64,000 bases of DNA from Anabaena cylindrica PCC 7122 (GCF_000317695.1 NC_019771.1:2463823-2527822), one strand, 5' to 3'. Positions 705-41,480 are shown, counted from the first letter of the stretch. A program made the numbers and translations. Notes: a model not told the origin generated them from the sequence alone.

Positions 705-965
705 TCAGCAATATAATCTACTACTTTGTTAAATTTTTCAATTGTTTCGAGAGCATCTTTGAATTTCTTAATTGCTTTTTGGAGATTAACACCAGGTTCT
801 TTTATATCCGTATTCAACTGATGCTTATTTGCCCCCGGTCTCCCTTAGAAAGTGGTAAATGAACGACTGGCAGTAGTTGAGTGATGATACAATCTGCGAT
901 CGCCTATTCTACGTCCTCATGGTAAGATTTCTTCGGGCAAAATTATTCACCCTTAAATTTACCAG

Positions 966-1406
966 ATGTCTATTCCTGAAATTACGCAGACTTTATTAGA
1001 AGCAAAGAAAGAGAAAGGTTTAAGCTTTGCTGATTTAGAAAAAATTCTGGGACTGGATGAAGTATACATTGCGGCTATATTCTACCGTCAAGCTAGTGCA
1101 TCACCCGAAGAAGCTAAGTTATTAGTAGAAGCATTGGATTTAGCCCCCATCTATATCCAAGAGTTGACCAAATATCCAGTTAAGGGATTGGGACCTGTTG
1201 TCCCAACAGACCCACTAATTTACCGCTTCTATGAAATTATGCAGGTCTATGGCTTCCCGATTAAGGAAGTAATTCAAGAAAAGTTTGGTGATGGGATTAT
1301 GAGTGCAATTGACTTTACCTTAGATGTGGAAAAAGAGGTAGACCCCAAAGGCGATCGCGTTAAAATTACCATGTCTGGTAAATTCCTACCGTACAAAAAG
1401 TGGTAG
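966..1406 (+). CDS. cynS: cyanate hydratase (cyanase)
   Basis: 146 aa. The N-terminus [49 protein letters not shown] and C-terminal region [33 protein letters not shown] are characteristic of CynS, and the length matches. Confidence 0.85.
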
Positions 1407-1639
1407 TCTTTGACTCATCAAATTAATTTTTGTTGGGAACAATACACCGAACCCGTAGGGCTAATTAGGGCTAAATATAGCGCGAATGCTCCTAATACAC
1501 AACTTTCACGTCGCACGCCCCTCATGACAACCGCGTTTACTAACCCCAAATAGCCTTTTGAAAGTTGTCTTGTGAAGACAAAGTATGCTCTGATAGGGTA
1601 ATCTCTGCATTGGGGTGAAAAAATTGTGCTGAGGTAATT

Positions 1640-1942
1640 ATGATTACAGGAAAATTAGAAGTAACAATCAAAATCAATGAACTACCAGAAGCCACGACCA
1701 TAGAAAACGGCTGGCAACAGTTCGAGGTTGATTGTGATGGTCGGATTATTAGCGTCACAGTCAAGCCGAAAGTTTGGAAAAAACTAACTGATGCCCAAGC
1801 TAACTATCCTCAATGGGTAGGAGCGATTGCTGGCAAGTTGGGAGAGGCCACCGATAACGGTTTTGTGCTGTTAGAGCCTAATATCCAGACTTTTGAGAAA
1901 AAGGCAAAAACACCAGCCGCAGATGCAGCTACTGCTAGTTGA
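1640..1942 (+). CDS. hypothetical protein
   Basis: 100-aa ORF with a clean frame and an Ala-rich C-terminus. No recognised motif. Confidence 0.4.
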   Translation: MITGKLEVTIKINELPEATTIENGWQQFEVDCDGRIISVTVKPKVWKKLTDAQANYPQWVGAIAGKLGEATDNGFVLLEPNIQTFEKKAKTPAADAATAS

Positions 1943-2667
1943 GCAAAAGTTCTACCACAGATGGATAATCACAGCTTACACAAGGGTTTCACCAGTCGGC
2001 TTGATGACCCCGTGAACCACTATCAACAGATGTAGCAACATTAAAAGTTAAAAATCAAACAAATGTTAGATTGCATCGGTGCAAAACTTCTGTATGATCT
2101 GGCTAATACGTAAATGAAGCGAGTAAGGGAGGTGTAGATATAGGTGAAGAGATAACAACTATAAAAACGGCAACAGGACAAAACGATACTAACTAGTACA
2201 CGCTTTGTCCCGTCATAGAATTGCCGATTTTAACTTTGCTCAATAGTATCCGAGCGGGGTTAATTTCAAAGAAACCAAAGAAGTGGTGTTAAGTTTGGCC
2301 GCTTGCCCCACCAATTGGCTTTCTTGAGATTGTTTCGTGTTGCTTTCTATTATATAGATTGCTGCGACATTTCAAGCCTTCCGACTGGAATATTTTGGAA
2401 AAAAATGAATCATACTCAGGACTTACCCACCAAGATGACTAATTGAAACAGGATATAAAGTGTGTAAAGTTGCGTGTAGTAAGAGTTTTAGCAATTTTAC
2501 CTCTCCCAAACCCAAATTTTTAGACAACCTGTGTAAGTCCCAAGATTCTTGATTCCTCATCCAAATAACCAGCATTAAGAAACGCAGCAAACCTCATAAA
2601 TATGTAAGAGCAGCACGAATAGCCCCCTCTGATACTCCTAAAAACCAAGTATCAAGAGGAATCTACC

Positions 2668-5600
2668 GTGCTAACAGAACAACAACTTTTCATCTCCACA
2701 GAAATAGATCCGGCTCATCGAGACGAATGGTTAGCGAGTGCCATTGACCCAGAAATCATTGACCTCAACTTGCGATCTCTCTGGGGAACCACACCCTACG
2801 AATATCTGCTCTACAGCATCAACATCTCTCGTCGCAACGACGGACGCTTACGGGATGGGGATTTAAGAAAATATCGCCACATCGAAAACGGAGGTTGGTG
2901 GTGTAACGGCGTTGACCCCTTAAACAACTACGAGCAAATGCTATGGGGGTGCTTAAAACCCAACCAGCCCCGACGTGACAAACAAAAAATTCACAAAATA
3001 ATTAAATACGAACATCCCTACAAAGAAGCAACTAGGGCATTCTTCCTGTACGTCCCATATAAAAATTGGGCAAAAATCTCAGACCGCTGCGGTATAGCCA
3101 TTACAGAAGAAGATAGACTTGACCCCCGTGGCTTCTGGTATTGGGTTTGGCGGCATAACGTCCCGTTAATAATCTGTGAAGGTGTTAAGAAAGCAGCTGC
3201 GTTATTAACTGCTGGTTATGCAGCGATCGCTATTCCTGGAGTCAACAACGGCTACCGCACCTCCAAAGATGAATATGGTAACACCATTGGTAAGCCCTAC
3301 CTCATCCCGGAAATTCAGCACTTTGCCACAAGAGGCAGACAAGTAAATATTTGTTTCGACAATGACAGTAATGCAGAAACTCGCAAACGGGTAAGAACCG
3401 CTATTAACCGCATGGGCAGCTTACTCATTGGTGCAGGCTGTGAAGTTAAGGTGATAGATTTACCCCCAGGAGCAGAAAAAGGAGTTGACGACTTCATCGC
3501 TGCCAAGGGTCAAGACGCATTTCACGCTTTATATAACACCTCCGAAGTGCTAGAGATGTGGCAGATACGGCTGTCTACTCTATTAACTTACCCTCCTGCA
3601 ATCTCTCTCAACCAAAGATTTCTGGGAGAAATTCTCATCCCCGCCAGTGAAAAACTCATCATCCTCAAAGCCCCCAAAGGCACAGGTAAAACCGAATCGC
3701 TCACCCTGGAAGTCGCCAAGGCACACGAAAGTGGGCAGAGGGTTTTGGTCATAACCCACCGCATTCAATTAGGTGAAGCCCTGTGCAATCGTTTTGGCGT
3801 TAACTACGTCACAGAAATTCACGATTCAGAAACAGGGGACTTACTTGGTTACGGAGTATGTATTGACTCCTTACATGGCAATAGCCAAGCCAAATTTAAT
3901 CCCAACGACTGGTCTAATGATATCGTGATCATCGACGAAGCCGACCAGGTATTCTGGCATTTATTAAACTCCGACACTGAAGTAGCTAAACGTCGTGTCT
4001 CTGTCCTTGACAATCTGAAAAAATTAGTTCAAAACGTCCTCAGCAGTCCCCAAGGAAAAATCTACCTCTCCTCTGCGGATATCAGTGATGTGGATGTCAA
4101 TTATATTCTCTCCTTAGCTGGAGGAATTCATATTAAGCCCTTTGTGATTGTCAATGACTACCAGCTTGAATCTGGCAACTGCTATAACTACCAAGGTAAA
4201 GACCCCAGAAATTTAATTGCGGCACTAGATATGGCTATTGCTCAAGGTGGGCATCATTTGTTGTGCTGTTCTGCCCAGAAAATGACATCCAAATGGGGGA
4301 CACAGGCTTTAGAAAAACGCTACCAGAGCAAATTCCCGCACTTACGCATTTTACGAATTGATGGTGAAACAGTGAAAGACCCCAATCACCCTGCTTATGG
4401 GTGTATTGCTCACCTCAACGAAATTCTCACGGAATATGATTTGGTTATCACTTCTCCTAGCCTAGAAACTGGGGTATCTATTGATATTAAGTCCCATTTT
4501 TCAGCAGTTTGGGGGATTTTCCAGGGTGTACAGCCGGTGAATTCGGTGCGGCAGATGCTGGCACGACTGCGAGAAACGGTTGACCGCCATATCTGGGTGA
4601 GAGAATGGGGTCTAGGAGTAATTGGTAATGGCTCTACCTCGATGGGCGTACTGTTAGCCAGTCAACACGCGATGACGCGGGCGAATATTGCTCTGTTATC
4701 GGCAGCAGATAATACTGATTACAGCTATATAGATGAAAATTTCCAGCCTGAATCTCTCCAAAGTTGGGCAAAGCGGGCTTGTGTGATTAATGCCCAAATG
4801 AAGTGTTACCGTAATGCTGTGCTACAGGGTTTGGCAGATGATGGCTATACAATTCTTGATGCTTCTGAGTCATTATCATTGGCAGCAGGTCATAAACAAG
4901 AGTTAGCGGCTGATGGCTATACAATTCTTGATGCTTCTGAGTTGAATTTGGTAGACAATGAGCAAGTGTTGAACTCGGTTGTAAATGAGCAGGTGTTGAA
5001 CTCGGTTGTGAATGAGCAGATAGTGAATGAAGTAAAAACTGCTGTTAATGAATTACAAACAATTGAGTGTGAAGAAGTGGCTTCATCTCAGACACTTACC
5101 AAAGCGGAATTCGATAAATTACAAGAGAAACGAGCTAAGACTAAGAGTGAACGTCAACAGGAACGTAAAGCTGAATTAGCGCAGCGTTATGGGGTGGATG
5201 TGACACCGGAACTAGTGAGGAAGGATGATGCTGGCTGGTATCCACAGTTGCGGCTGCATTATTATTTAAGCCTGGGGCGTGAGTTTTTGGTAGTCCGTGA
5301 TACTAAGAGGGCTAAAGCCCAGGCTGAGAAGGGTAATAATGCGGTTTGGAAGCCTGATTTTAATCGGGGACAGTTGCTTCCTGCGGTGATGTTATTGGAG
5401 GAATTGAATATTTCCCAGTTGTTTAATACTGATGTGGAGTTTCGCAGTTCTGATGTGGAGTTGCAGGAAATGCGATCGCTGGCTGTGGAACATAAGCAGG
5501 TGATTAAGAATTACCTGGGGGTTTCTATCTCTGAGAAAGATAGTGCGATCGCTATCTGCCAGAAGTTCCTGAAAAAGTTGGGGATGAAGCTGTCTTATAT

Positions 5601-5775
5601 TGGCAGGTTTGGAGCAAGAGGACACCGGGAACGGGTTTACAAGTTTGTCCCACCCCAAGATGAACGGGAAATTATTTTCTCAGGGTGGCTACAACGAGAT
5701 GAAGCCATGAGTGCGTCCACCACGGAAAATGTGGTGGATGTTAATTCTGTGTCCACCCCTAATAATAAGAGATAA
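2668..5775 (+). CDS. plasmid/ICE-type replication protein (TOPRIM/DUF3854-like primase domain + P-loop NTPase), CyRepA-like
   Basis: 1035 aa. Toprim-like block VPLIICEGVKKAAALLTAGYAAIAIPGV...NICFDNDSNAETRK...EKGVDDFIAAKG. Walker A LKAPKGTGKTESL and Walker B IVIIDEADQV. The C-terminus carries near-identical internal repeats (DGYTILDASE... twice; NEQVLNSVVNEQVLNSVVNEQIVNE). It is followed by iteron-like repeats. Confidence 0.65.
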   Translation: MLTEQQLFISTEIDPAHRDEWLASAIDPEIIDLNLRSLWGTTPYEYLLYSINISRRNDGRLRDGDLRKYRHIENGGWWCNGVDPLNNYEQMLWGCLKPNQPRRDKQKIHKIIKYEHPYKEATRAFFLYVPYKNWAKISDRCGIAITEEDRLDPRGFWYWVWRHNVPLIICEGVKKAAALLTAGYAAIAIPGVNNGYRTSKDEYGNTIGKPYLIPEIQHFATRGRQVNICFDNDSNAETRKRVRTAINRMGSLLIGAGCEVKVIDLPPGAEKGVDDFIAAKGQDAFHALYNTSEVLEMWQIRLSTLLTYPPAISLNQRFLGEILIPASEKLIILKAPKGTGKTESLTLEVAKAHESGQRVLVITHRIQLGEALCNRFGVNYVTEIHDSETGDLLGYGVCIDSLHGNSQAKFNPNDWSNDIVIIDEADQVFWHLLNSDTEVAKRRVSVLDNLKKLVQNVLSSPQGKIYLSSADISDVDVNYILSLAGGIHIKPFVIVNDYQLESGNCYNYQGKDPRNLIAALDMAIAQGGHHLLCCSAQKMTSKWGTQALEKRYQSKFPHLRILRIDGETVKDPNHPAYGCIAHLNEILTEYDLVITSPSLETGVSIDIKSHFSAVWGIFQGVQPVNSVRQMLARLRETVDRHIWVREWGLGVIGNGSTSMGVLLASQHAMTRANIALLSAADNTDYSYIDENFQPESLQSWAKRACVINAQMKCYRNAVLQGLADDGYTILDASESLSLAAGHKQELAADGYTILDASELNLVDNEQVLNSVVNEQVLNSVVNEQIVNEVKTAVNELQTIECEEVASSQTLTKAEFDKLQEKRAKTKSERQQERKAELAQRYGVDVTPELVRKDDAGWYPQLRLHYYLSLGREFLVVRDTKRAKAQAEKGNNAVWKPDFNRGQLLPAVMLLEELNISQLFNTDVEFRSSDVELQEMRSLAVEHKQVIKNYLGVSISEKDSAIAICQKFLKKLGMKLSYIGRFGARGHRERVYKFVPPQDEREIIFSGWLQRDEAMSASTTENVVDVNSVSTPNNKR

Positions 5776-5788
5776 ATACATGAGTTAT

Positions 5789-5870
5789 GGACACCAGGAC
5801 ACAATAACCTTGGACACAATAACCTTGGACACATGAAACCTGAACTCATTAACCCTGGACACCAGGACAC
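5789..5870. repeat. iteron-like direct repeats (6 x GGACAC with AATAACCTT spacers)
   Basis: ggacaccaggacacaataaccttggacacaataaccttggacaca...ccctggacaccaggacacaaac lies immediately 3' of the replication-protein gene. Confidence 0.5.
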
Positions 5871-6485
5871 AAACTAACTAACCAAACGTTTCCCAAATTT
5901 TAAATAGGTGAAGACTATCACCTCATTTTGTAGTTCAACTTTGTTTGACGCTCCACGTATTTCGCTATGTTCCACATGGAGTCTCCTTAGCAAAAATCAG
6001 GACTTACGCAAAATCTTTCTCAAACGCCCATTTTTCGTGACCTCTGCGCCTCGAGGGGGATGCCTGACGGCACGCGGGAGCAAACGTTATTTTTGTACCT
6101 TGATGTGAGTCTTAACAATAAACGTGTAATTTTATACTTCTAAAATTTGTAGTAGACAAATAAATACTACAAATGTATTATTAAAATAATCTTGATTACA
6201 AATACTACAAAAATTCAATGAGCAGCAGATTCTCTTCAACAATTAGTAGCGTGGTGCATTGCCGACCCTATCGGGGTTCAGGCAGAGCAGTTTCGTTGCG
6301 AGAAACAGCTAGAGTCTATGCACTGTTGGCGTTTGAGGGAATGTATCTGTTAATCGGCGATAAATCTATAAGCCTGGGGATTTTTGGCGCGTTAGCCTCT
6401 TGGCTGAATCCAGATCAACTAATTCAAAGCGGGGGGTGCAAATGTTTCATAGCACCGAAATAGGGCAAAAAGTATCAACAAACAG

Positions 6486-6524
6486 ACCCCCGCTTTTGTT
6501 CACCAGAGGCGGGGGTTATTTTTT
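6486..6524 (+). terminator. Rho-independent terminator
   Basis: A CCCCCGC...GCGGGGG stem followed by TTATTTTTT. Confidence 0.5.
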
Positions 6525-6540
6525 AGGAGTGAATTAACTA

Positions 6541-7077
6541 ATGGAAGCTCAACCACCTTTTCAGCAAACGCACATACTACAAAATTCAGTTGTGGTGTTC
6601 TCTAAAAACTACCTACCACTATCACGCATCAACATTAAGCGTGCAATCGTGCTGTTAGTTACAGGTCAAGCAGAATCATTGAACTTTGATACTACAAAGC
6701 AATGGGAAATTCGTTCTCCCAGTGTTGTACTACAAGTACCTGAACACATCCGCTTGACTGTTGGTAATCCTGAACGGCATTGGAAAATACCACCCGTAAA
6801 CCGTCGAGAGGTTTTGAAGCGAGACAACCACACCTGTCAATACTGTGGTAGTACAAAACGTTTAACCCTTGATCATGTAATACCTCGTTCCAAAGGTGGA
6901 CAGCATACATGGGACAACGTTGTAACGGCGTGTGACAAGTGCAATTCAATAAAAAGCGATCGCCTACTTTATGAAGCAGGAATGGTACTTAAAACCAAAC
7001 CCAAAGCCCCAATTCACCCAGCAGTTGCATTTGCCGAACAGTTTTGGAACGCACAACGCCTAACGGAGAAAGAGTAA
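6541..7077 (+). CDS. HNH endonuclease
   Basis: HNH motif DNHTCQYCGSTKRLTLDHVIPRSKGGQHTWDNVVTACDKCNSIKSDR. Confidence 0.8.
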   Translation: MEAQPPFQQTHILQNSVVVFSKNYLPLSRINIKRAIVLLVTGQAESLNFDTTKQWEIRSPSVVLQVPEHIRLTVGNPERHWKIPPVNRREVLKRDNHTCQYCGSTKRLTLDHVIPRSKGGQHTWDNVVTACDKCNSIKSDRLLYEAGMVLKTKPKAPIHPAVAFAEQFWNAQRLTEKE

Positions 7078-7283
7078 TTCATTCCCTTAAACCCATTCAG
7101 AGAGGGCAATACAGCGATTCAATCACACCGCCCTCTCATTTCTGAAAAAAAATTTGTAGTATGCCCTTGACAACTCTGTAGTATGTAATGTAGTATAAAT
7201 GTAGTAAAGCAAAAAGAGCCTCCACCAAAGGCAAAGTGCTAACACCTCTGAACCATGAAAACTAAATAATTGCCACCCAACGT

Positions 7284-7358
7284 GGGGGTGTAACTCAGTT
7301 GGTTAAGAGTGCCTGTCTGTCGAACAGGAAGCCGCGAGTTCGAGTCTCGTCATCCCCG
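7284..7358 (+). tRNA. tRNA-Asp(GUC)
   Basis: Acceptor GGGGGTG/CATCCCC. Anticodon stem-loop CCTGT-CTGTCGA-ACAGG. T-arm GCGAG-TTCGAGT-CTCGT. Confidence 0.7.
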
Positions 7359-7361
7359 TGT

Positions 7362-7435
7362 AGCCTTGTGGACGAATAGATAAGTCGCTTTGATTCTCAG
7401 TCAAAGAGAAGCGGGTGCAACTCCCGTCAAGGCTT
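7362..7435 (+). tRNA. tRNA-Glu(CUC)-like
   Basis: Acceptor AGCCTTG/CAAGGCT. Anticodon loop TTCTCAG. The T-loop is TGCAACT, which is non-canonical. Confidence 0.45.
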
Positions 7436-7443
7436 GCAAATGT

Positions 7444-7519
7444 GTCCGAGTAGCCAAGTGGTAAGGGCGTTGGTCTGCAAAACTAATCATCGTGGGTTCA
7501 AATCCCACCTCGGACTCCA
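7444..7519 (+). tRNA. tRNA-Cys(GCA), CCA encoded
   Basis: Acceptor GTCCGAG/CTCGGAC followed by T and CCA. Anticodon loop CTGCAAA. T-arm GTGGG-TTCAAAT-CCCAC. Confidence 0.65.
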
Positions 7520-7525
7520 AACATT

Positions 7526-7623
7526 GCAGCGTCACCTAACGGTAAGGTACTCGGCTCATAACCGGGAGTATGTGGGTATCTCCTTCGGAGACGCTACGCG
7601 AACAACTCCCACCGCTGCGACCA
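7526..7623 (+). tRNA. aberrant tRNA-like (anticodon CAU) with ~24-nt insertion in T-loop
   Basis: Acceptor GCAGCG.../...CGCTGC followed by G-A-CCA. Anticodon stem-loop CTCGG-CTCATAA-CCGGG. The T-stem GTGGG/CCCAC encloses TATCTCCTTCGGAGACGCTACGCGAACAACT. Confidence 0.35.
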
Positions 7624-7626
7624 AAT

Positions 7627-7697
7627 GCACAGATGGTGTAACGGAAGCATAAGGGTCTCCAAAACCTTTGGTCATGGTTCAAATCCTTGTCTGTGCG
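7627..7697 (+). tRNA. tRNA-Trp(CCA)
   Basis: Acceptor GCACAGA/TCTGTGC. Anticodon stem-loop AGGGT-CTCCAAA-ACCTT. T-arm CATGG-TTCAAAT-CCTTG. Confidence 0.6.
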
Positions 7698-7702
7698 TTG
7701 AT

Positions 7703-7779
7703 GGTGCAGAAGCGAAGTGGCCGAGCGGCACGTCTTTCAAGCGTGTAATTAGCGGGTTCAAGTCCCGTCTGCACTACCA
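7703..7779 (+). tRNA. tRNA-Glu(UUC)-like, CCA encoded
   Basis: Acceptor GGTGCAG/CTGCACT followed by A and CCA. Anticodon stem-loop CACGT-CTTTCAA-GCGTG. T-arm GCGGG-TTCAAGT-CCCGT. Confidence 0.5.
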
Positions 7780-7786
7780 AATTTAT

Positions 7787-7868
7787 GGGTCGGCTCGCCT
7801 ATTGGTGTAGGTAACGGTCTGTAAAACCGCCGCGTTCAGTGTTGCTGGTTCAATTCCAGCCCGACCCA
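7787..7868 (+). tRNA. tRNA-Tyr(GUA)-like (long variable arm)
   Basis: Acceptor GGGTCGG/CCGACCC. Anticodon loop CTGTAAA. T-arm GCTGG-TTCAATT-CCAGC. Confidence 0.5.
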
Positions 7869-7872
7869 CTAT

Positions 7873-7960
7873 GGAGAGATTGCCATTGGCAGGGCAAGCT
7901 GTTTGCTAAACAGTCGTGAAATTCAACATTTCACTGTGGGTTCGACTCCCTCTCTCTCCG
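7873..7960 (+). tRNA. tRNA-Ser(GCU) (class II)
   Basis: Acceptor GGAGAGA/TCTCTCC. Anticodon stem-loop GCTGT-TTGCTAA-ACAGT. Long variable arm CGTGAAATTCAACATTTCACTG. T-loop TTCGACT. Confidence 0.6.
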
Positions 7961-7966
7961 CCTTAT

Positions 7967-8040
7967 CCCCTGGTAGCTCAGTTGGTAGTAGCGCCTGTTT
8001 GAAGAACAGGAGGTCATCCGTTCAATCCGGATCTGGGGGA
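7967..8040 (+). tRNA. tRNA-Phe(GAA)
   Basis: D-arm TAGCTCAGTTGGTAGTAGC. Anticodon stem-loop CCTGT-TTGAAGA-ACAGG. T-arm ATCCG-TTCAATC-CGGAT. Confidence 0.6.
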
Positions 8041-8049
8041 CTGGCACAT

Positions 8050-8124
<75 letters not shown>

Positions 8125-8264
8125 TTTATTGGGAAGTAGGCAAAGTCACATTGCCCTGAACGATAGGCTTGCAGGTTCGACCCCTGCTTCGGCATCTAAT
8201 TGTCTTTAGGCATCGAACTGGCAAACATAGTTTTTTTTATGTCACCATAAAAGCTAAAAAAACT

Positions 8265-9041
8265 ATGAGATATCGAAGTGTTCTGTCAAATAAAACCAAA
8301 GTAGAGGAAGCTGTGAAGCGTTGTTCTTCAGTCAGAGAATGCCTACATTTTTTGGGGCTACGTTCGGCTGGTGGCAACTACAAACAGTTTTACTGCTGGT
8401 GTGAGAAGCACGGTATTATTCCACCTAAAGGAAAAAATATTAATGGACTGAATAACGCCTCTAAACAAGCTCAAATTCCGTTAGAAAAAATTTTAATTTT
8501 AGGCTCTTCTTACAACAGAAATAGTTTGAAATCTAGGTTAATTCAAGAATCATTATTAGAGGAAAGATGCTATGAATGTGGGATATTGTCTAAATGGAAT
8601 GAAAAACCTCTTTGTTTGCAATTAGACCATATTAATGGCATAGCTAATGATAATCGAATAGAAAATCTACGTCTTTTATGTCCTAACTGCCACAGTCAAA
8701 CGCTAACTTTTGCAGGTAAACGAAAACCTTACTCTCGGATTGTCTTTTATTCTTGTTCCAACTGTTATGCTTCAATAACTAAATCTTCTAAGCTAGGGCT
8801 TTGTAAAAGATGTGCATCTTTAAGGTCAAACTTAAAAAGAAGGAAAGTCGAACGTCCTTCTAAAGAAGAATTGCACGAGTTGCTGTGGTCGAAGCCAACA
8901 AGTTTAGTAGCTAAAGAATTAGGAGTAAGCGATAAGGCAATAGAAAAATGGTGTAAATCTTATGGCATTCCAAAACCACCAAGAGGATATTGGAATAAAC
9001 AAAATCAATTACAAGGTTTGATAGTAAATCAAACCTTGTAA
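8265..9041 (+). CDS. HNH endonuclease
   Basis: HNH motif CYECGILSKWNEKPLCLQLDHINGIANDNRIENLRLLCPNCHSQT. The ORF-track start at 8169 would read through a tRNA-like remnant. The start was moved to the first Met after it, MRYRSV. Confidence 0.75.
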   Translation: MRYRSVLSNKTKVEEAVKRCSSVRECLHFLGLRSAGGNYKQFYCWCEKHGIIPPKGKNINGLNNASKQAQIPLEKILILGSSYNRNSLKSRLIQESLLEERCYECGILSKWNEKPLCLQLDHINGIANDNRIENLRLLCPNCHSQTLTFAGKRKPYSRIVFYSCSNCYASITKSSKLGLCKRCASLRSNLKRRKVERPSKEELHELLWSKPTSLVAKELGVSDKAIEKWCKSYGIPKPPRGYWNKQNQLQGLIVNQTL

Positions 9042-9048
9042 CGCTGAT

Positions 9049-9122
9049 TGAGAAGTCGTCTAATAGGTATGGCACCGCTCTTTGAAAGCGGAAAAATGCA
9101 GGTTCAAGCCCTGCCTTCTCAG
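9049..9122 (+). tRNA. tRNA-Gln(UUG)
   Basis: Acceptor TGAGAAG/CTTCTCA with 7 of 7 pairs. Anticodon stem-loop CCGCT-CTTTGAA-AGCGG. T-arm GCAGG-TTCAAGC-CCTGC. It starts 8 nt after the HNH stop. Confidence 0.55.
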
Positions 9123-9167
9123 TTATGTTCTCTGAAGTTTGTAATAACTTAAAGAACAATTAATTTT

Positions 9168-9266
9168 GCTCCTGTAGCCCAACTGGAAGAGGCGGCTGTC
9201 TCAAAAACAGTCTGTGTACGGGTACTGCTCCGCAGAAGCAAGCTACAACTCCCGTCAGGAGTACCA
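9168..9266 (+). tRNA. aberrant tRNA-like (anticodon CAA) with insertion in T-loop, CCA encoded
   Basis: Acceptor GCTCCTG/CAGGAGT followed by A and CCA. Anticodon stem-loop GCTGT-CTCAAAA-ACAGT. The T-stem ACGGG/CCCGT encloses a ~30-nt loop ending CAACT. Confidence 0.35.
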
Positions 9267-9270
9267 AAAT

Positions 9271-9347
9271 CGGGATGTAATTCAGTGGTCTAGAAGCCTT
9301 GTTTTGGGGACAAGGAGTCGTAGGTTCAAATCCTACCATCCCGACCA
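9271..9347 (+). tRNA. tRNA-Pro(UGG), CCA encoded
   Basis: Acceptor CGGGATG/CATCCCG followed by A and CCA. Anticodon stem-loop CTTGT-TTTGGGG-ACAAG. T-arm GTAGG-TTCAAAT-CCTAC. Confidence 0.7.
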
Positions 9348-9350
9348 TTT

Positions 9351-9424
9351 GCCCTTGTGACGAAATTGGCAAACGTGCTGGTCTTAGAAACCAGATTTTG
9401 TGGGTTCAACTCCCACCAAGGGTA
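9351..9424 (+). tRNA. tRNA-like, anticodon UAG (Leu codon) in class I body
   Basis: Acceptor GCCCTTG/CAAGGGT. Anticodon stem-loop CTGGT-CTTAGAA-ACCAG. T-arm GTGGG-TTCAACT-CCCAC. The variable arm is short. Confidence 0.45.
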
Positions 9425-9444
9425 CTGGGTATTTACCCAACTAT

Positions 9445-9522
9445 GCTCTCGTGGCGAAATTGGTAAACGCTTCCGTTTGAGGGACGGAATTTTTGCTCTT
9501 TCAAATCCTGTCGGGAGTACCA
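9445..9522 (+). tRNA. aberrant tRNA-like (anticodon GAG) with degenerate T-arm, CCA encoded
   Basis: Acceptor GCTCTCG/CGGGAGT followed by A and CCA. Anticodon stem-loop TCCGT-TTGAGGG-ACGGA. No canonical T-stem could be drawn. Confidence 0.3.
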
Positions 9523-9527
9523 ACTTT

Positions 9528-9602
9528 GGGCGTTTGGCAGAACGGTTATGCGCCTGACTTTTAATCAGGTTAAAACAGGTTCAACTCCTGTAGCGCCCAC
9601 CA
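9528..9602 (+). tRNA. tRNA-Lys(UUU), CCA encoded
   Basis: Acceptor GGGCGTT/AGCGCCC followed by A and CCA. Anticodon stem-loop CCTGA-CTTTTAA-TCAGG. T-arm ACAGG-TTCAACT-CCTGT. Confidence 0.65.
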
Positions 9603-9603
9603 A

Positions 9604-9677
9604 GCCCCTGTGGCGCAATTGGCAGACGTAGCCCGCTTAAACCGGGTTTGTTGCAGGTTCGACTCCTGTCAGGGGTA
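9604..9677 (+). tRNA. tRNA-like, anticodon UAA (Leu codon) in class I body
   Basis: Acceptor GCCCCTG/CAGGGGT. Anticodon stem-loop CCCG-CTTAAAC-CGGG. T-arm GCAGG-TTCGACT-CCTGT. Confidence 0.45.
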
Positions 9678-9751
9678 TGCGGGGATAGAGCATTCTTTGG
9701 CTCGGCAGTTTCATAAGCTGCAAACGGTGAGTGCAACTCTCACCCCCGCGT
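9678..9751 (+). tRNA. tRNA-like, anticodon CAU (Met/Ile2)
   Basis: Acceptor TGCGGGG/CCCCGCG. Anticodon stem-loop GCAGT-TTCATAA-GCTGC. T-arm GTGAG-TGCAACT-CTCAC. It directly abuts the preceding tRNA. Confidence 0.4.
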
Positions 9752-9783
9752 CCATATACAGACTGTCCTCGCTGTCTGCTTTT

Positions 9784-9861
9784 GCTGGTGTAGCTCAATG
9801 TGGCAGAGCGATCGCCGATGTTTGCGATCGGTTGCAGGTTCAACTCCTGTCACCAGCCCCA
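9784..9861 (+). tRNA. tRNA-like with 8-nt anticodon loop, CCA encoded
   Basis: Acceptor GCTGGTG/CACCAGC with 7 of 7 pairs, followed by C and CCA. D-arm TAGCTCAATGTGGCAGAGC. T-arm GCAGG-TTCAACT-CCTGT. The anticodon region GATCGC-CGATGTTT-GCGATC is non-canonical. It ends 6 nt before the transposon end. Confidence 0.4.
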
Positions 9862-9867
9862 GATACG

Positions 9868-10036
9868 TGTAGCGACCTGCAATACTAATCGGTCAAACCT
9901 GCAATCAAGGGATTTTCAAACCAGGATTAAATGCAACTATAAATACACTTCAGCCAGAATTAATTGCAACTGAACCAGGATTAAATGCAACCAACCTGCA
10001 ATCATCCGTTTCAACCAGGATTATTTGCAACTGACC
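9868..10036. repeat. transposon left end (IR-L) with subterminal repeats at 9919-9938, 9951-9972, 9973-9992, 10013-10033 (plus an extra copy at 10113-10133)
   Basis: The reverse complement of 13490-13662 matches this stretch over ~165 bp. Confidence 0.75.
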
Positions 10037-10280
10037 GAAAGTCCTATTAAATCGTTGTTGAGCAGTTTACTCAAAAAACGCTCCAACTTATCAACAAAAG
10101 TATTTGAACTTCAGCCAGGATTAATTGCAACTGAGAGTAAAAGAAACGACCGTTTTTTTTACTCCCATTATTACCATCAAGCAGAACCAGAATCAAATTT
10201 AGTAAAGAAACTCGGTAATTAAATCAAAGGCAACATATACTGTGAGGTAACGAGTTTATTTACTTGTTGGGGTTCCAAGT

Positions 10281-10850
10281 ATGTTGATAGGCTATGCCCG
10301 AATTTCAACAGATGACCAAAATCTGAACCTGCAAATGGATGCTTTACAGCTTGCTGGTTGCGAGAAAATTTACTCCGACCGCACAAGCGGTGCAAAAGCA
10401 GAACGACCTGGACTTTCCTTAGCATTGGAAGTAGCACGGACTGGTGATGTTCTGGTGGTATGGCGGCTAGACCGCTTAGGAAGATCGCTCAAAGATTTGA
10501 TTGAAATGATGGAAACCTTAGATAAGCGAGGAATTGGGCTTTCTAGCTTGCAAGAATCCATCACCACCACGAATAACAGTGGTAGATTAATTTTCCATTT
10601 GTTTGGTGCATTGGCTGAATTTGAGCGTAACCTCATCCGTGAACGCACTACGGCTGGACTTGTAGCGGCACGAGGGCGTGGTCATAGAGGAGGTAGACCA
10701 AAAGCCCTAGATCCAACTAAACGTCAATTAGCAGTAAGACTTTATACCGAAAAACAATACACAATTATTGAAATATGTAATTTGATGGGAATTTCCAAAC
10801 CAACGCTCTACAACTATATTGCAGAGATAAAAACTGAACATGGTACATAA
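10281..10850 (+). CDS. tniR: serine recombinase (resolvase/invertase family)
   Basis: MLIGYARISTDDQNLNLQMDAL...GDVLVVWRLDRLGRSL, followed by a C-terminal HTH (ISKPTLYNYI). It has the typical length of ~190 aa. Confidence 0.85.
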   Translation: MLIGYARISTDDQNLNLQMDALQLAGCEKIYSDRTSGAKAERPGLSLALEVARTGDVLVVWRLDRLGRSLKDLIEMMETLDKRGIGLSSLQESITTTNNSGRLIFHLFGALAEFERNLIRERTTAGLVAARGRGHRGGRPKALDPTKRQLAVRLYTEKQYTIIEICNLMGISKPTLYNYIAEIKTEHGT

Positions 10851-12501
10851 GCAAATCTCTGTAGAGGCACTTATTAATTTACGCCACCGCCTCGACGGAT
10901 TGCCTAGCCGTTGTCAAGAGCGGCGAATTCTCATCGAAGAGACAGCAGCATTATATGGAGTGTCAACAGATACACTATATCGCGCCTTGCGTAACTCATC
11001 ACGCCCCAAATCCATAAATCGCTCAGATAGCGGGACCCCCAGAAAACTTTCACTCGCGGAAATGGAACGCTACTGCGAGGTCATCGCGGCCATGAAAATC
11101 CGCACTAGTAACAAGAAAGGGCGACATATCTCCACAGTCCGGGCAATTGAACTGTTGGAGGAGTTTGGGATGGAAACACCCGATGGTTTTGTCCAACCAG
11201 ATAAAGGTGCGTTAACTAGAAGCACTGTCAATTATTACTTAAAAACATGGGGGTATGATCAAGAACGCATGACCAGGCAACCGCCTGCGGTGCGTTTTCA
11301 AGCAGAGTACAGCAACGAATGTTGGCATTTCGACCTCAGCCCATCTGATTTAAAACACGTAAAACAGCCATCATGGGTAGAACCGGGTAGAGGTAATCCA
11401 TTACTGATGCTTTATAGTATTGTTGATGACCGTAGTGGTTTATGTTATCAAGAATACCACTGTGTTTATGGGGAGGATGTAGAAGCTGCATTACGTTTCT
11501 TATTTAATGCGATGACAGCGAAAACAACCGACGGCTTTGCCTTTCAGGGGATTCCAGAGATGATTTATACGGATAACGGACCCATTGCGAAAAGCCACGT
11601 ATTCCAAAATGTGATGGATTGCCTGAGAATCAATCTTGTTACCCATATGCCTGCGGGTAAAGATGGTCGTCGGGTAACAGCCCGCTCCAAAGGCAAAGTA
11701 GAAAGACCTTCTCGGACAGTCAAAGAAGCCCATGAGACTCTGTATCACTTTCATGAACCGGAAAGCGACATTGAAGCTAACTTATGGTTGCGCCAATATT
11801 TGTTGCATTACAACGACAAACCACACCGCATAGAGCCGCATTCCCGGCTGGAAGATTGGTTGCGAAATATACCTAAGTCTGGCTTGCGTTCGATGTGTAG
11901 TTGGGAGCGATTCTGTACCTTTGCCCGTGAACCACAGCGCAGAAAAGTGGGAACGGATGCTAGGGTATCGGTAGAGGGTGTGGCTTATGAGGTAGAACCG
12001 GACTTAGCAGGAGAAACTGTCGTGCCATGGTGGGGCTTGTTTGACAACGAACTGTACGTAGAAAAAGAAGACCGTCGCTACGGACCATTTTACCCAGTTG
12101 ACGGTCCTATCCCCTTACACCGCTACCGTAAATTTAAGAAAACTAAAACCGAAGAACGGGCAGATAAAATTGCCAATTTAGCTAAAAAGTTGGGTTTGCC
12201 ACGAACTGCCTTGGACAAAAACACGGATTTACAATTTCTGGTGGATAAGTATAAGGAATTGGAGCCAACTGTTACACCTTTTAACGACCCTGACCCATAC
12301 CAAGAATTTACTTATCCGACTGTATTGTTTGCTAAGAGGGCGATTTCTGAACAACTGGCCAGACCTTTGGCTAAATTGTCTCCCGAACAGTTGGCATTCA
12401 TTGATGCCCTGCTGGCTGAGACTCTGAATAAAAAAGCGATTATTGAACGAGTGCGGCAATATTTCCGCTCAAATCAAGGAGAGGAACAAAATGCTCACTG
12501 A
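10840..12501 (+). CDS. tniA: DDE transposase, TniA/TnsB (Mu-type) family
   Basis: 553 aa. The catalytic core has WHFDLS...(D)...YTDNGPIAKSH...(E) spacing typical of Mu/TnsB/TniA. Its start overlaps the resolvase stop and its stop overlaps the tniB start. Confidence 0.7.
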   Translation: MVHKQISVEALINLRHRLDGLPSRCQERRILIEETAALYGVSTDTLYRALRNSSRPKSINRSDSGTPRKLSLAEMERYCEVIAAMKIRTSNKKGRHISTVRAIELLEEFGMETPDGFVQPDKGALTRSTVNYYLKTWGYDQERMTRQPPAVRFQAEYSNECWHFDLSPSDLKHVKQPSWVEPGRGNPLLMLYSIVDDRSGLCYQEYHCVYGEDVEAALRFLFNAMTAKTTDGFAFQGIPEMIYTDNGPIAKSHVFQNVMDCLRINLVTHMPAGKDGRRVTARSKGKVERPSRTVKEAHETLYHFHEPESDIEANLWLRQYLLHYNDKPHRIEPHSRLEDWLRNIPKSGLRSMCSWERFCTFAREPQRRKVGTDARVSVEGVAYEVEPDLAGETVVPWWGLFDNELYVEKEDRRYGPFYPVDGPIPLHRYRKFKKTKTEERADKIANLAKKLGLPRTALDKNTDLQFLVDKYKELEPTVTPFNDPDPYQEFTYPTVLFAKRAISEQLARPLAKLSPEQLAFIDALLAETLNKKAIIERVRQYFRSNQGEEQNAH

Positions 12502-13461
12502 AGTCATGGAACACTTTCGATTGCTCAGAGAGTTCCGCAAGGCTGGCTACTACGAAACAGAACACCAAAAACAATTGTTTAAGGATATTAAAGTCGCAAT
12601 CCATTCAGGAAAGCTGGTTGCCATCACGGGAATTATCGGGTGTGGCAAGACGACGACTTTACGACGTTTGTTTGAGGTTTTGGAGAAAGAAGGCAAGATT
12701 TTAGTCTCGAAATCGCTTTCTGTTGATAAAAACCGAGCGACGCTACCAACACTGATTGCTGCCTTATTTTACGATTTAGCAACAGATAAGGAAATTAAAA
12801 TTCCTGCACTTGGGGAAAAACGAGAACGGGAACTGCGTGACTTGATTAGAAAAGGTAAAAAGCCTGTGGCGTTGTTTGTAGATGAGGCTCACGACTTACA
12901 TTACAGTACGCTCACAGGACTCAAACGTTTAATTGAGGTAGTTGAAGACGGTGGTGGTACGCTCTCAGTTGTGTTAGCTGGTCATCCTAAGCTGAAAAAT
13001 GATTTACGCCGTCCAACTATGGAAGAAATTGGCTATCGGGCAACTGTTTTTCTTTGGAGGGTATTGTTGGTAGTCAAAAAGAATATATTGAATGGTTGGT
13101 ATCTAAATGTACTACTGAAGATACTCAAATAAGTGAGATATTGGAGCCGGATGCTATTGAATTACTTGCCATGCGGTTGAGGACACCATTGCAAATTGAG
13201 CAACATTTGACACTAGCTTTCGAGGCTGCATACCTTTTTGGAGAGAAAACTGTTACCACAGCGATTATTGAGTCTATTTTATCTAAGCAAATTGACGATT
13301 TGGAACCCACCTTAACCCGGCATGGCTACGATGTAAGGGGCTTGGCGGAACAGTTCAATGCCAAACCGGCGGAAATTAAATTGCTGTTTCGCGGACAACT
13401 TGATCCAGCCCGCTCTCGTGAATTACACGAGCAAATGCTGGCGGCAGGACTGCCACTTTGA
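12443..13461 (+). pseudogene. tniB: TniB/TnsC-like AAA+ ATPase, frameshifted
   Basis: Walker A ITGIIGCGKTT and Walker B LFVDEAHDL. The reading frame breaks near 13050-13080 at gtttttctttgg and continues in the +1 frame (ORFs 12443-13132 and 13054-13461). Confidence 0.7.
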
Positions 13462-13489
13462 GCGGATTGAAACTGCGATAAAAATGTTA

Positions 13490-13662
13490 GTATTTATAGT
13501 TGCAATTAATCCTGGTTGAAACGGATGATTGCAGGTTGGTTGCATTTAATCCTGGTTCAGTTGCAATTAATTCTGGCTCAACCGTATTTATAGTTGCATT
13601 TAATCCTGGTTTGAAAATCCCTTGATTGCAGGTTTGACTGATTAGTATTGCAGGTCGCTACA
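13490..13662. repeat. transposon right end (IR-R)
   Basis: Reverse complement of 9868-10036. It ends ...GGTCGCTACA. Confidence 0.75.
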
Positions 13663-14821
13663 TATACTCATTAGATTCTGGGGACCATACACCATTGGCA
13701 TCAGCTTCATATCTCATCCATGATTTAGTTTCATCGTTGAAGGCGATCATGTGGCGATAATCTTCAGCGATTTCTTTGGCCATTTGATCCGGTGGTGGAT
13801 TCTTATGCTTCTCTGGTTCGTCGTTTTGAGGTGTTCCTGATTTAAAGGTTTTCTCCAGTCGGGCAATGGCATCAGAGTAAGCCCGGTCAAATGCTCCTGT
13901 TCCTGAATTTACTATTAAGTCATCAATTCCTTTACCTTGTTCAGTTCTCCAGAAAATATCCTCTACATAAGATGGGTTAGCAGCTTTCAATGCTAGGGTC
14001 AAACGTTTCTTACCCTTGGTGACTGATATTTTGGCTTTGTGCGAGTCGTCTCTGTCCATGGCCAGTAGCCAAATTGAGTTTTCTACTGCCAACCGTTCTA
14101 AGTCAGGGGTAAGGCTTGGCTCTAAGTTAATTCCATCTTCATCTTTGGATTTACCCGCACCGCACCGACAACCATAGAGTCCGATGGTAACGTAACCCTG
14201 AGAAAGTGCGGCTAGTGCCTTCTTGCCACCTTCTGTAATGATTCTAGGGATTTTAGCTTCTCTCACCCAGTCCCAAAAACTACCTTCCATCGGCACATTC
14301 ATACCGGATCTAGAAGCAACTTTCTTTCTAATTGGTTCGGGGACAGGTGGCGTGAATGCGCGATCGCCATTTCCCTTTGGGGCTAAATATCTGTAGGGGC
14401 GTTGACGGTCTTCATCCCAAAGGCTAACCATTACCTGCCACAAACTACCATCCTCATTTCTGAGGAATGCAGCATAGATAGGTTCTTTAACTTGGTATCC
14501 GAACCGGGTGAAGTACCATCCCAATTCGTCATGAATGGGAGCTTCAGCGTCCATGCCGTCTGTCCACTCAATGGATTCATGAAACTCAATATCAGCAAAT
14601 AGTTCTGGGTCTATGCCACTACCGTTAATAAATAAATCCTTGGCAAATGATTTAAATTCTTCAAAACTGGTAAATTTGTTCTGTAAATTGACAGTTTTGG
14701 AAGTGTCTATTTGGCTGTCAGTAAGGCTTTTCGCATCTTTTTCTGCTACAATAGTAGTAGATTTTATATTTTTTGTTGTGGGTGAAGTTGTCGCTTCCCC
14801 ATTTTTTTTGCGTGTAGTCAT
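13658..14821 (-). CDS. DUF3854/TOPRIM-like protein (paralog of the N-terminal domain of the 2668-5775 protein), C-terminus supplied by transposon end
   Basis: PRIITEGGKKALAALSQGYVTIGLYGCRCG...GKGIDDLIVNSG parallels PLIICEGVKKAAALLTAGYAAIAIPGV...EKGVDDFIAAKG. The last ~4 codons and the stop codon lie inside IR-R of the transposon. The protein is 387 aa against 1035 aa for the paralog. Confidence 0.55.
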   Translation of the reverse strand: MTTRKKNGEATTSPTTKNIKSTTIVAEKDAKSLTDSQIDTSKTVNLQNKFTSFEEFKSFAKDLFINGSGIDPELFADIEFHESIEWTDGMDAEAPIHDELGWYFTRFGYQVKEPIYAAFLRNEDGSLWQVMVSLWDEDRQRPYRYLAPKGNGDRAFTPPVPEPIRKKVASRSGMNVPMEGSFWDWVREAKIPRIITEGGKKALAALSQGYVTIGLYGCRCGAGKSKDEDGINLEPSLTPDLERLAVENSIWLLAMDRDDSHKAKISVTKGKKRLTLALKAANPSYVEDIFWRTEQGKGIDDLIVNSGTGAFDRAYSDAIARLEKTFKSGTPQNDEPEKHKNPPPDQMAKEIAEDYRHMIAFNDETKSWMRYEADANGVWSPESNEYM

Positions 14822-14918: not shown

Positions 14919-14962
14919 ATGGTGGATTGCATGGTGGATTGTATGGTGGATTGTATGGTAGA
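14919..14962. repeat. tandem 12-mer repeat (ATGGTGGATTGY x ~3.5)
   Basis: ggtggattgcatggtggattgtatggtggattgtatggtagatg. Confidence 0.5.
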
Positions 14963-15205
14963 TGAAACCCTTGCTGTGTAAGGTTATGGTGGATGATGGT
15001 GGGTTGAGCCTATCTTTTACAGTCGTAGGGAAAATATATTTTGGATATATCTTTTCCCAAATAAAAACCCACCGCCAAATTAATGACGATGGTTATATAT
15101 CCAAGGAAGCTTTCAAGGACTCAAGTAATTTAATTCGGTCGTGCAACTGGTTAACTCTAGCTTCAGAGTTAGTCAGTTCTTCCTTTGACTCTAGAATCAG
15201 TTGCT

Positions 15206-33190: not shown

Positions 33191-33192
33191 TG

Positions 33193-33266
33193 GTTGAAAG
33201 TACAGGATTTGAACCTGTTACAGATCGATTAAAAGTCGATTGCTCTACCAAATGAGCTAACTTCCG
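33193..33266 (-). tRNA. tRNA-Lys(UUU)-like
   Basis: Minus strand: D-arm TAGCTCATTTGGTAGAGCA. Anticodon stem-loop ATCGA-CTTTTAA-TCGAT. T-arm ACAGG-TTCAAAT-CCTGT. The acceptor pairs over 6 bp. Confidence 0.5.
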
Positions 33267-33268
33267 GG

Positions 33269-33341
33269 GGTTTGATACAGGATTTGAACCTGCGACGGGT
33301 TGATTATAAGTCAACTGCTCTACCAACTGAGCTAATCAAAC
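33269..33341 (-). tRNA. tRNA-Ile(UAU)-like
   Basis: Minus strand: acceptor GTTTGAT/ATCAAAC. D-arm TAGCTCAGTTGGTAGAGCA. Anticodon stem-loop GTTGA-CTTATAA-TCAAC. T-arm GCAGG-TTCAAAT-CCTGT. Confidence 0.55.
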
Positions 33342-41250: not shown

Positions 41251-41480
41251 CCTTGGTGTTGCAGATTAAGAATATAGATTTATTGCACGCAGAGACGCAG
41301 AGTCACAGAGAGTAAGAGTTGAGAATTTTCTCGTTCCCAATCCAATCAGAGTTTGGGAACGAGAGGTTGGTATTAGCCTATATTTAGACTAAAAATAAAT
41401 GTGTTATCTGCATACATTGTTTATCGCTGACATTGCTCACTGCAAACATAGCGAAGTCAAAAGCTATTAAACCATTAGAA

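Follow-up and report, generated by a model that had tools for sequence, protein, structure and literature searches.

A stretch of 64,000 nt from Anabaena cylindrica PCC 7122 (GCF_000317695.1, NC_019771.1:2463823-2527822), which we call the window, contains a transposon of 3,795 bp at positions 9868-13662 as a discrete unit. The best explanation of the data as a whole, to which we assign a probability of about 0.8, is that this is a replicative three-gene transposon that has decayed, that it sits where a plasmid is fused to a chromosomal element, and that the tRNA gene next to it is an incidental neighbor. The element is best described as an ISAzs36-type, Tn552-like transposon with an IS481-related transposase, and the window copy is a new, defective member of a catalogued group ('IS481-like ISAzs36') of the known Tn552-like kind. 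An earlier note on this DNA had recognized a compact, discrete transposon with a transposase, an ATPase, a resolvase and multi-repeat ends in the style of Mu and Tn7, and this description is supported. The unit recurs in other cyanobacteria.

Structure of the transposon

The element is bounded by two terminal inverted repeats of 165 nt (left, plus strand, 9868-10032; right, minus strand, 13498-13662), the arms of which are 97% complementary. Its termini read TGT...ACA, and the tip TGTAGCGACCTGCAAT of the left repeat is conserved in about 55 cyanobacterial ends. A 23-nt tip occurs in the window just twice, at the two ends of the element, with zero occurrences expected. The 17-mer CCAGGATTAAWTGCAAC is present in the window in nine copies as compared to 0.05 expected by chance. 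Five of these are direct repeats on the plus strand at the left end (9921, 9954, 9975, 10015 and 10115, spanning 9921-10131), the fifth being located outside the inverted repeat, and four belong to the right repeat (13499, 13539, 13560 and 13593). By analogy, the 17-mers are presumed to be transposase-binding sites. A second motif, ACCTGCAAT, occurs three times in each end. The earlier description of near-identical inverted ends of about 165 bp, each with four to five subterminal repeats and with TGT...ACA tips, is thus accurate.

A candidate res site is found together with the putative resolvase promoter at 10137-10270 on the plus strand. It comprises the palindrome AAACGACCGTTT at about 10137-10162 and the inverted pair AAACTCGGT...ACGAGTTT at about 10205-10260. 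Both blocks are conserved over six diverged copies of the element and are still present in a 519-bp derivative that consists of the ends only.

Only three genes are found between the ends, both in the window copy and in every complete relative examined, and their coding regions overlap. All three are on the plus strand. The first (10281-10850) encodes an intact serine resolvase of 189 aa (PF00239, 1.2e-44; HTH_7), and an identical protein is encoded on eight other contigs. The second (10840-12501) encodes a DDE transposase of 553 aa with a helix-turn-helix region, an rve-type core and a C-terminal extension, in which D165, D245 and E288 are the inferred catalytic residues. Alone, this transposase has no significant Pfam match, with Mu-transpos_C_2 remaining below the threshold; rve is found in 24 of the 28 members of its family and Mu-transpos_C_2, weakly, in 23 of the 28. 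The third (12491-13461) is the pseudogene of an AAA+ ATPase that comprises 323 aa when intact. This protein gives generic AAA_22 (1e-12) and AAA_16 matches only, and its reading frame is broken in two (12443/12491-13132 and 13054-13461).

A survey of open reading frames (ORFs) in the window showed none for TniQ, TnsA or cas12k in or near the element, and an Rfam scan of the window returned tRNAs only, with no CRISPR or tracrRNA. Both results agree with the earlier statement that cas12k, CRISPR repeats and tracrRNA-like sequences are missing from the element and its vicinity. Likewise, no relative copy examined has TniQ or Cas12k inside the element.

Other copies and the target site

The full unit recurs at 84-88% identity in several cyanobacterial assemblies, including plasmids of Tolypothrix sp. 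PCC 7712 / Microchaete diplosiphon and of Calothrix sp. PCC 6303, and elements that are 99.9% identical are present in five assemblies. The concern that the ends might not be found as a unit elsewhere can therefore be put aside. A scan of species-representative genomes with a 16-nt tip produced about 55 genuine cyanobacterial ends, along with many chance matches in unrelated bacteria.

Copies in which both ends are readable are flanked by perfect 6-bp direct repeats (ACTAAG, AGTACC, GCTAGT and AATATC), and further 6-bp duplications are TCTATC in Cuspidothrix and TATAGC in a Nostoc variant. The exception is locus L097, where the flanks ATTACC and ATTAGC match at five of six positions. When the flanks are read outward from the tip, positions 3 and 4 are T and A in 56 out of 56 cases, and C is the commonest base at position 2 (22/56). 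The target is NNTANN, and it is duplicated over 6 bp. The comparison of other ends and their flanks, which the earlier note had proposed as a check, has thus yielded clean 6-bp duplications, and the 5-bp duplication with four of five matching positions that it had read around the window copy has to be replaced by a 6-bp site with a central TA, the flanks being GATACG and TATACT.

Several of these copies have features of their own. The non-autonomous derivative of 519 bp in Nostoc sp. CCCryo 231-06 (L062 824-1342) consists of both ends and the candidate res site and is flanked by the duplication GCTAGT. A 4,223-bp variant with 177-bp inverted ends and the duplication TATAGC is found on plasmid pNsp_b of Nostoc sp. 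ATCC 53789 (L003 2594-6816), and similar copies are found on four more plasmids. In this variant, a tyrosine recombinase gene on the opposite strand replaces that of the serine resolvase; the variant is inserted in a tnsC-like gene of a Tn7-like element, and its subterminal repeat, GGCTCACATTAATTGCAAA, is close to the repeats of the Salmonella plasmid copy (L129 6110-6225). The copy on contig_20 of Cuspidothrix issatschenkoi CHARLIE-1 (L116 4324-8000 and L069 1-1652; duplication TCTATC) is 96.5% identical to that of the window, and its ATPase gene is interrupted at L116 ~5024-6545 by about 1.5 kb of inserted DNA.

The junction between plasmid and chromosomal DNA

The hexamers that flank the window copy, GATACG on the left (9862-9867) and TATACT on the right (13663-13668), both fit NNTANN and are different from each other. 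Judged by their sequence and context, they are separate target sites rather than the remains of one duplication. One could argue that the element made a simple insertion and that its 6-bp duplication has since mutated at both outer positions, as the hexamers agree at four of six positions. However, the invariant TA accounts for two of the four matches, and the remaining agreement at two of the four free positions is about what chance would give (p = 0.26). Furthermore, a sister plasmid joins the identical left junction to entirely different right-hand DNA, a restored site would run a protein-coding gene straight into the 3' end of a tRNA, and in related arrays this tRNA is followed by further tRNAs. 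We give a mutated duplication almost no chance of being the correct explanation.

The DNA to the left of the element belongs to a plasmid. Window positions 281-9867 are 100% identical to the 54-kb plasmid AP018171.1, which belongs to a different genome, including the junction of GATACG with the TGT tip, and CP186040.1 has the same GATACG junction. On the other side of the element, both records continue with ACTAGAATGGGG... (ACTAGA...) followed by Mob and PIN genes, which are absent from the window. The tRNA array is also cut at the element, because homologues of its last tRNA precede more tRNAs. Upstream of the array lies a full-length Rep gene of the CyRepA type (2668-5775) that encodes 1,035 aa with a DUF3854 domain and a P-loop.

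To the right of the element there is a second, truncated DUF3854 (CyRepA/primase-like) gene of 387 aa (13658-14821, minus strand; PF12965, 6e-30). Its final Met codon and TAG stop are supplied by element bases 13658-13662. The best relative is a 925-aa protein with a VapE domain, to which it aligns over the relative's residues 55-324. About 385 of the ~925 residues are kept, and the ~540 C-terminal residues, corresponding to the VapE/helicase part, are missing and absent from the window. This agrees with the earlier proposal that the element's end provides the stop codon of a truncated gene. An independent read assembly reproduces 9.7 kb of this right flank exactly, TATACT included, and stops at the boundary of the element. 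As the two DUF3854 genes are only 31% identical over the DUF3854 domain, they come from different replicons. Three to four tandem copies of the 12-nt unit ATGGTGGATTGY (14919-14963) precede the start of the truncated gene by about 100 nt and may be iterons or the origin of the element that carried this gene.

Further to the right, the DNA is chromosomal and contains nifK (41838-43388), nifE, nifN and ddl. Directly upstream of nifK is a nifD stub (41479-41631) that comprises the last ~35-50 codons of the gene (profile positions 432-466 of 466, E = 8e-15). An ORF of 434 aa for a XisA-like tyrosine recombinase (39946-41250, minus strand; weak Phage_integrase match) occupies the position of xisA. 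Since the nifD stub is preceded by this ORF, the DNA to the left of about 41.48 kb would be a nifD-interrupting element of the classical type, which appears to be at least 41 kb long and to take in the transposon as well as plasmid-like DNA. Such elements range from ~1 kb to nearly 1 Mb in size (PMC4874684). The transposon is located about 28 kb inside the element, with plasmid DNA on its far side. The putative nifD element also holds two minus-strand tRNAs, Lys(TTT) and Ile(TAT), and an ISL3-family transposase gene (33191-33341, 38005-39282).

The simplest reading is that a plasmid with a Rep gene and a tRNA array would have become joined to the nifD element at the transposon. The earlier note had asked whether the flanks betray a chimeric rearrangement instead of a discrete element. 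They do reveal a junction of two backbones, but the element at this junction is intact as a unit.

A junction of this kind could also be an artefact, in which the plasmid copy and a second, simple insertion, located in the nifD element's primase-like gene, reside on separate contigs that were mis-joined within the 3.8-kb repeat. Related genomes contain the element in multiple copies, and short-read assemblies break at it, with many contigs being 3.3-4.5 kb long. Contigs L139 and L140 stop at the element boundary, and no independent contig runs across both junctions. In addition, the four changes that are private to the window copy are all in its right 55%, its left 1.84 kb being equal to the master sequence described below, and the variant transposase has no record in the assembly collection. 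On the other hand, the 64 kb of the window run through the repeat without a break, and the zero differences in 19.3 kb of its flanks suggest a polished long-read assembly, which would be able to span 3.8 kb. Genuine two-copy fusion structures in a sister genome also argue against a mis-assembly. We regard it as unlikely, albeit less so than a mutated duplication.

Proposed transposition pathway and probable origin of the fusion

The fusion of the Rep- and tRNA-bearing plasmid with the nifD element, which the window copy appears to mark, is most likely the result of an unresolved cointegrate or of recombination between copies. The transposition pathway that we propose is modeled on Mu, Tn7 and Tn552. 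The transposase would bind the terminal TGTAGCGACCTGCAAT and the repeated 17-mers and form a paired-end complex. The MuB-like ATPase would load onto the target DNA and activate strand transfer in the manner of MuB and TnsC. As the element lacks a TnsA-type nuclease for the 5' ends, transposition would be replicative and would fuse donor and target into a cointegrate, which the resolvase would be expected to resolve at the candidate res site that separates its gene from the left end.

The structure of AP018167.1 (GCA_002367955.1; L133 9588-13383, L135 1-3795) is in keeping with such a pathway. Here, two direct, 99.9%-identical copies bracket 32.4 kb of DNA. Both outer flanks are TCTAAG, and one inner flank is TCTAAA. 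When the outer flanks are joined with one TCTAAG removed, an uninterrupted ORF of 5,241 aa or more emerges, which encodes a giant cadherin/PKD-domain protein. This is the arrangement that an unresolved replicative cointegrate would leave behind, and it would likewise result from the movement of a composite of two copies. The element is probably cointegrate-forming, as had been suggested earlier. In Fortiea sp. LEGE XX443 (L011 1037-6992), an internally deleted copy (1037-3594) is accompanied by a separate left end of 265 nt (tip at 6992) in the same orientation; both outer flanks are GCTATT and the inner flank is CCTATT, making this a second case of a duplication around a two-end structure.

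Alternatively, the junction could be real and yet owe nothing to a transposition cointegrate, having arisen by RecA-dependent homologous recombination between two simple insertions, one in the plasmid and one in the nifD element. Copies that are 99.9% identical over 3.8 kb offer ample homology for this, and the persistence of the fusion despite an intact resolvase would be explained if the partner copy was later lost. The flanks of the sister plasmid, GATACG and ACTAGA, are mismatched as well, which suggests repeated exchange of flanks. The outcome in sequence would be the same as that of a cointegrate, and sequence alone does not tell one from the other. The single duplication around two copies in AP018167.1 fits transposition and not recombination of independent insertions. 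We consider recombination to be a serious but less probable route to the fusion.

An unresolved cointegrate predicts a second copy outside the window, with the missing C-terminal part of the primase gene and TATACT on one side of it and ACTAGA on the other. Several observations weigh against our interpretation, and this is the first of them: no second copy is present in the 64-kb window, so that the cointegrate partner is only a prediction. An intact-looking resolvase sits oddly with a cointegrate that was left unresolved, and the identity of the left 1.84 kb of the copy to the master leaves room for a mis-join inside the repeat. Analogy with other systems is the basis for the roles proposed for the 17-mers, the ATPase and the candidate res site. 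As for the family relationship, the ATPase gives a probability of only 3.5% (E = 0.012) against p271 of Tn552 in hhalign, with 182 columns co-linear, and the AlphaFold2 models of the transposase and the ATPase, built from alignments of 28 and 25 sequences, have low confidence (predicted local distance difference test scores, pLDDT, of 57 and 63) and are too poor for establishing a fold-level relation to TnsB, MuA or p480.

Decay of the window copy

The elements on the eight contigs with the identical resolvase are 3,796 bp long and 99.9% identical to the window copy, which differs from this master sequence, represented for instance by AP018171.1, at four positions only. Three of the differences, at 11711, 12026 and 12362, are transitions at second codon positions of the transposase gene and result in the substitutions F291S, L396P and K508R. 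At residues 291 and 396, all 27 other sequences in the alignment of 28 family members have F and L, and F291 is three residues past the inferred catalytic E288. The fourth is a 1-nt deletion in the ATPase gene that turns T6 into T5 at 13047-13051, as given by DNA alignment to intact 972-bp genes; the master has T6. The frameshift that the earlier note had placed in a T5 run at about 13065 of a tniB gene is thus confirmed against every relative, although its position is different and the TniB label is not supported.

A sequencing error is an unlikely cause of these differences because the 19.3 kb of flanking DNA shows none at all in comparison with independent assemblies. The three private substitutions have no sequence motif in common, which makes a methylation-type sequencing artefact unlikely as well. 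A look-up in the assembly collection returned no record of the window's exact transposase. The window copy is probably non-autonomous. As its ends, its resolvase and its candidate res site are intact, it could be mobilized, but only with the help of another copy.

Family placement

Relatives of the transposase with 55-63% identity are found by tblastn in 908 plasmid records, of which 392 are from Salmonella, 151 from Klebsiella and 87 from Yersinia. In three of the three plasmid records examined, the transposase gene is located between a resolvase gene and the gene of an AAA ATPase of ~323 aa. The Azospirillum copy is annotated as 'IS481-like element ISAzs36 family transposase', and PGAP labels the orthologues either 'IS481 family' or 'ISAzs36 family'. 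A large protein collection contains more than 3,000 clusters for each protein, and among the best 120 relatives of the ATPase, about 100 are 323-324 aa long and the others are fragments or fusions.

The transposase matches the NCBIfam IS481 profile NF033577 over residues 25-330 (profile positions 9-273 of 284) with an E-value of 3.9e-21 and 75.8 bits, which is below the cut-off of 224 bits. The ISAzs36 transposase scores 71.9 bits against the same profile. Among the controls, Tn552 p480 matches with 45 and 50 bits for two fragments, Tn7-like TnsB matches over the catalytic core only, and MuA gives no match. In profile-profile comparison with hhalign, the transposase aligns with Tn552 p480 over 156 columns with a probability of 90% (E = 1.6e-6). 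This alignment begins at the second catalytic Asp, includes the Glu and extends into the next domain (DxG...GK(V/I)ER, beta-barrel), and the N-terminal half matches weakly. The corresponding comparison with a Nostoc Tn7-like TnsB gives a probability of 2.8% over 56 columns that surround the DDE motif only, and that with MuA found nothing.

The ATPase profile matches the AAA+ core of MuB over 156 columns with a probability of 90% (E = 1.5e-6), and Tn7-like TnsC with a probability of 72% that covers the Walker A region only. No TniB or IstB is present among the matches listed, which comprise 25 Pfam families. Sequence and profile searches of the PDB returned weak matches to retroviral integrases for the transposase and P-loop matches for the ATPase. 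With the low-confidence model of the ATPase, Foldseek finds a generic AAA+ fold of the initiator/clamp-loader type, in which ShCAST TnsC is ranked 20th, after ORC, Cdc6 and RFC. We chose the name ISAzs36-type, Tn552-like because of the matches to p480 and to the IS481 profile, the gene order, the tips and the duplication.

These comparisons bear on an interpretation along the lines of the earlier note, according to which this is a minimal Tn5053/Tn7-family transposon with TniA/TnsB and TniB/TnsC proteins that has lost its target selector, and its position next to a tRNA gene reflects homing similar to that of TniQ-dependent elements or CRISPR-associated transposons (CASTs). The TGT/ACA tips, the several subterminal repeats, the combination of a transposase, an AAA+ ATPase and a resolvase, and the appearance of ShCAST TnsC in the Foldseek ranking all speak for it. 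However, the negligible similarity to TnsB and MuA, the confinement of the TnsC match to Walker A and the lack of TniB among the Pfam families listed are at odds with the protein labels, and a duplication of 6 bp instead of 5 bp and the absence of TniQ and Cas12k from all copies examined, in a window with no CRISPR or tracrRNA, are at odds with the rest. We find this interpretation very unlikely and reject membership of the Tn7-like/Tn5053 group, as a TnsB/TniA-type transposase, a TniQ/TnsD selector and a 5-bp duplication are all missing. The absence of TniQ and TnsA had been correctly observed, but it is nothing unusual, being normal for both the ISAzs36 group and Tn552. Since it is the normal state of the Tn552-like type, it does not represent a loss.

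The neighboring tRNA gene

The left tip of the element, at 9868, is 6 nt away from the end of the last tRNA of a plasmid-type array (9784-9861, plus strand; Rfam tRNA, 52 bits), as the earlier note had pointed out. This tRNA lies outside the element. It has an oversized anticodon loop, for which ARAGORN gives the 4-base anticodon 'atgt', and is followed by CCA. Its homologues in related arrays are Thr(TGT) and are followed by further tRNAs; in three related arrays, the homologues do not encode CCA. The array as a whole (7283-9861) contains 16 tRNAs according to ARAGORN and an additional one at 9445-9519 according to Rfam, and two HNH endonuclease genes accompany it (6541-7077 and 8169-9041).

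The adjacency had been taken to recall the tRNA-proximal homing of type V-K CASTs. When we inspected the DNA outward of 55 other ends, over a few kb at most per locus, no tRNA was found, apart from one at a distance of 4.4 kb. This also counts against the Tn5053/Tn7 interpretation, and because the other ends lack nearby outward tRNAs, the adjacency seen in the window is best regarded as incidental. The identification of the element as a type V-K CAST was rejected on the same grounds and in view of the missing cas12k ORF, CRISPR and tracrRNA. A 14-nt likeness of the right end (13626-13639) to tRNA T-arms was also considered; it is most simply a chance overlap with the motif ACCTGCAA, because no other end examined has a tRNA nearby.

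Significance

We thus see no homing system of a CAST-like or TniQ-less type in this DNA, and the proximity to a tRNA is accidental. The group to which the element belongs is abundant, extending to Salmonella virulence plasmids and thousands of protein clusters, and has been little studied. New handles on it are provided by the TA that never varies at the center of the 6-bp target, by the structures of the cointegrate type and by the swap of a serine for a tyrosine recombinase. The window copy illustrates how an element of this kind can stitch plasmid DNA to a nifD-interrupting element, which bears on the growth of developmentally excised elements.

A more far-reaching proposal, which we make tentatively and believe to be somewhat unlikely, is that ISAzs36-type elements constitute a very widespread and unrecognized heteromeric replicative family, sister to Tn552, with an IS481-like ancestry, a MuB-like regulator, an exchangeable serine/tyrosine resolvase and a strict NNTANN target, one member of which has fused a plasmid into a developmentally excised nifD element. 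If this were true, the chromosome of vegetative cells would carry plasmid DNA that is excised in heterocysts.

Comparison with known systems

The element shares with phage Mu an ATPase that aligns to the MuB core and, as proposed here, replicative transposition by means of multi-site ends. It differs from Mu in that no similarity to MuA was detected and in the duplication, which is 5 bp for Mu; moreover, it is not a phage. Tn5053/Tn402 and Tn7-like transposons, including type V-K CASTs, form cointegrates that are resolved by a resolvase when TnsA is missing (PMC11406308). Like the window element, they combine a DDE transposase with an AAA+ regulator and have TGT/ACA ends with several internal binding sites. 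Unlike them, the window element has neither a target selector nor a guide RNA, generates a 6-bp duplication and does not home to tRNAs or attachment sites, and the profile similarity of its proteins to Tn7-like TnsB and TnsC is not significant.

The hallmarks of the IS481 family are a 6-bp duplication, NCTAGN, and TGT termini (PMC6794481; PMC11406308). The canonical members, such as IS481 and ISRe46, resemble the window element in a 6-bp duplication centered on (C)TA(G), in the TGT terminus and in a DDE core that matches the IS481 profile. However, they are ~1-1.3 kb long, encode one transposase (~330 aa) and have inverted repeats that are short, whereas the window element is 3.8 kb long and adds a C-terminal extension of 220 aa, an AAA+ ATPase, a resolvase and multi-site ends of 165 bp.

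The resemblance to Tn552 of Staphylococcus aureus is more extensive. The order resolvase-transposase-ATPase (binL-p480-p271), the TGT/ACA tips, inverted ends of more than 100 bp, a duplication of 6-7 bp and the lack of TniQ and TnsA are common to both, and the IS481 profile matches the two transposases with scores that lie below the cut-off. In the Tn552 copy of pMW2 (binL 7180-7773, p480 5765-7304, p271 4957-5772, ends at 4872 and 11417), we find inverted repeats of ~111 nt and the 7-bp duplication TAATTGT. The similarity between the transposases is nevertheless remote, and the ATPase of the window element resembles MuB (90%) far more than p271 (3.5%). Tn552 carries bla and prefers plasmid res sites, whereas the window element has no cargo genes and a target with a strict central TA.

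The closest relatives are the ISAzs36-type elements of Azospirillum sp. B510 plasmid pAB510f, Salmonella virulence plasmids and Klebsiella IncF plasmids, which ISfinder and PGAP place in the IS481 family. The literature searched contains no experimental work on any member, and the name appears there only as an annotation, in four papers. The ends and duplications of the proteobacterial copies could not be defined by inverted-repeat search and local alignment. The copy on the Salmonella Choleraesuis virulence plasmid (L129 2936-6290), a plasmid type that is covered by 392 Salmonella records, contains the resolvase-transposase-ATPase trio; its left end is truncated beside a carbonic anhydrase gene, an IS630 is present at its right end, and its annotation is limited to 'IS481 family transposase / ExeA family protein'. 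The crs/rsd resolution locus of the Salmonella plasmid, with its 17-bp repeats, was considered as a possible equivalent of this element's left end, an idea that was dropped as the sequence did not show it. The window element agrees with the ISAzs36-type elements in having, in the same order, three overlapping genes whose products are a resolvase (~185 aa), a transposase (~550 aa) and an ATPase (~323 aa), and the Salmonella copy also has the subterminal motif ...ATTAAYTGCAA.... It differs from them in its tip and its 17-mer, which are particular to a sub-lineage found in cyanobacteria.

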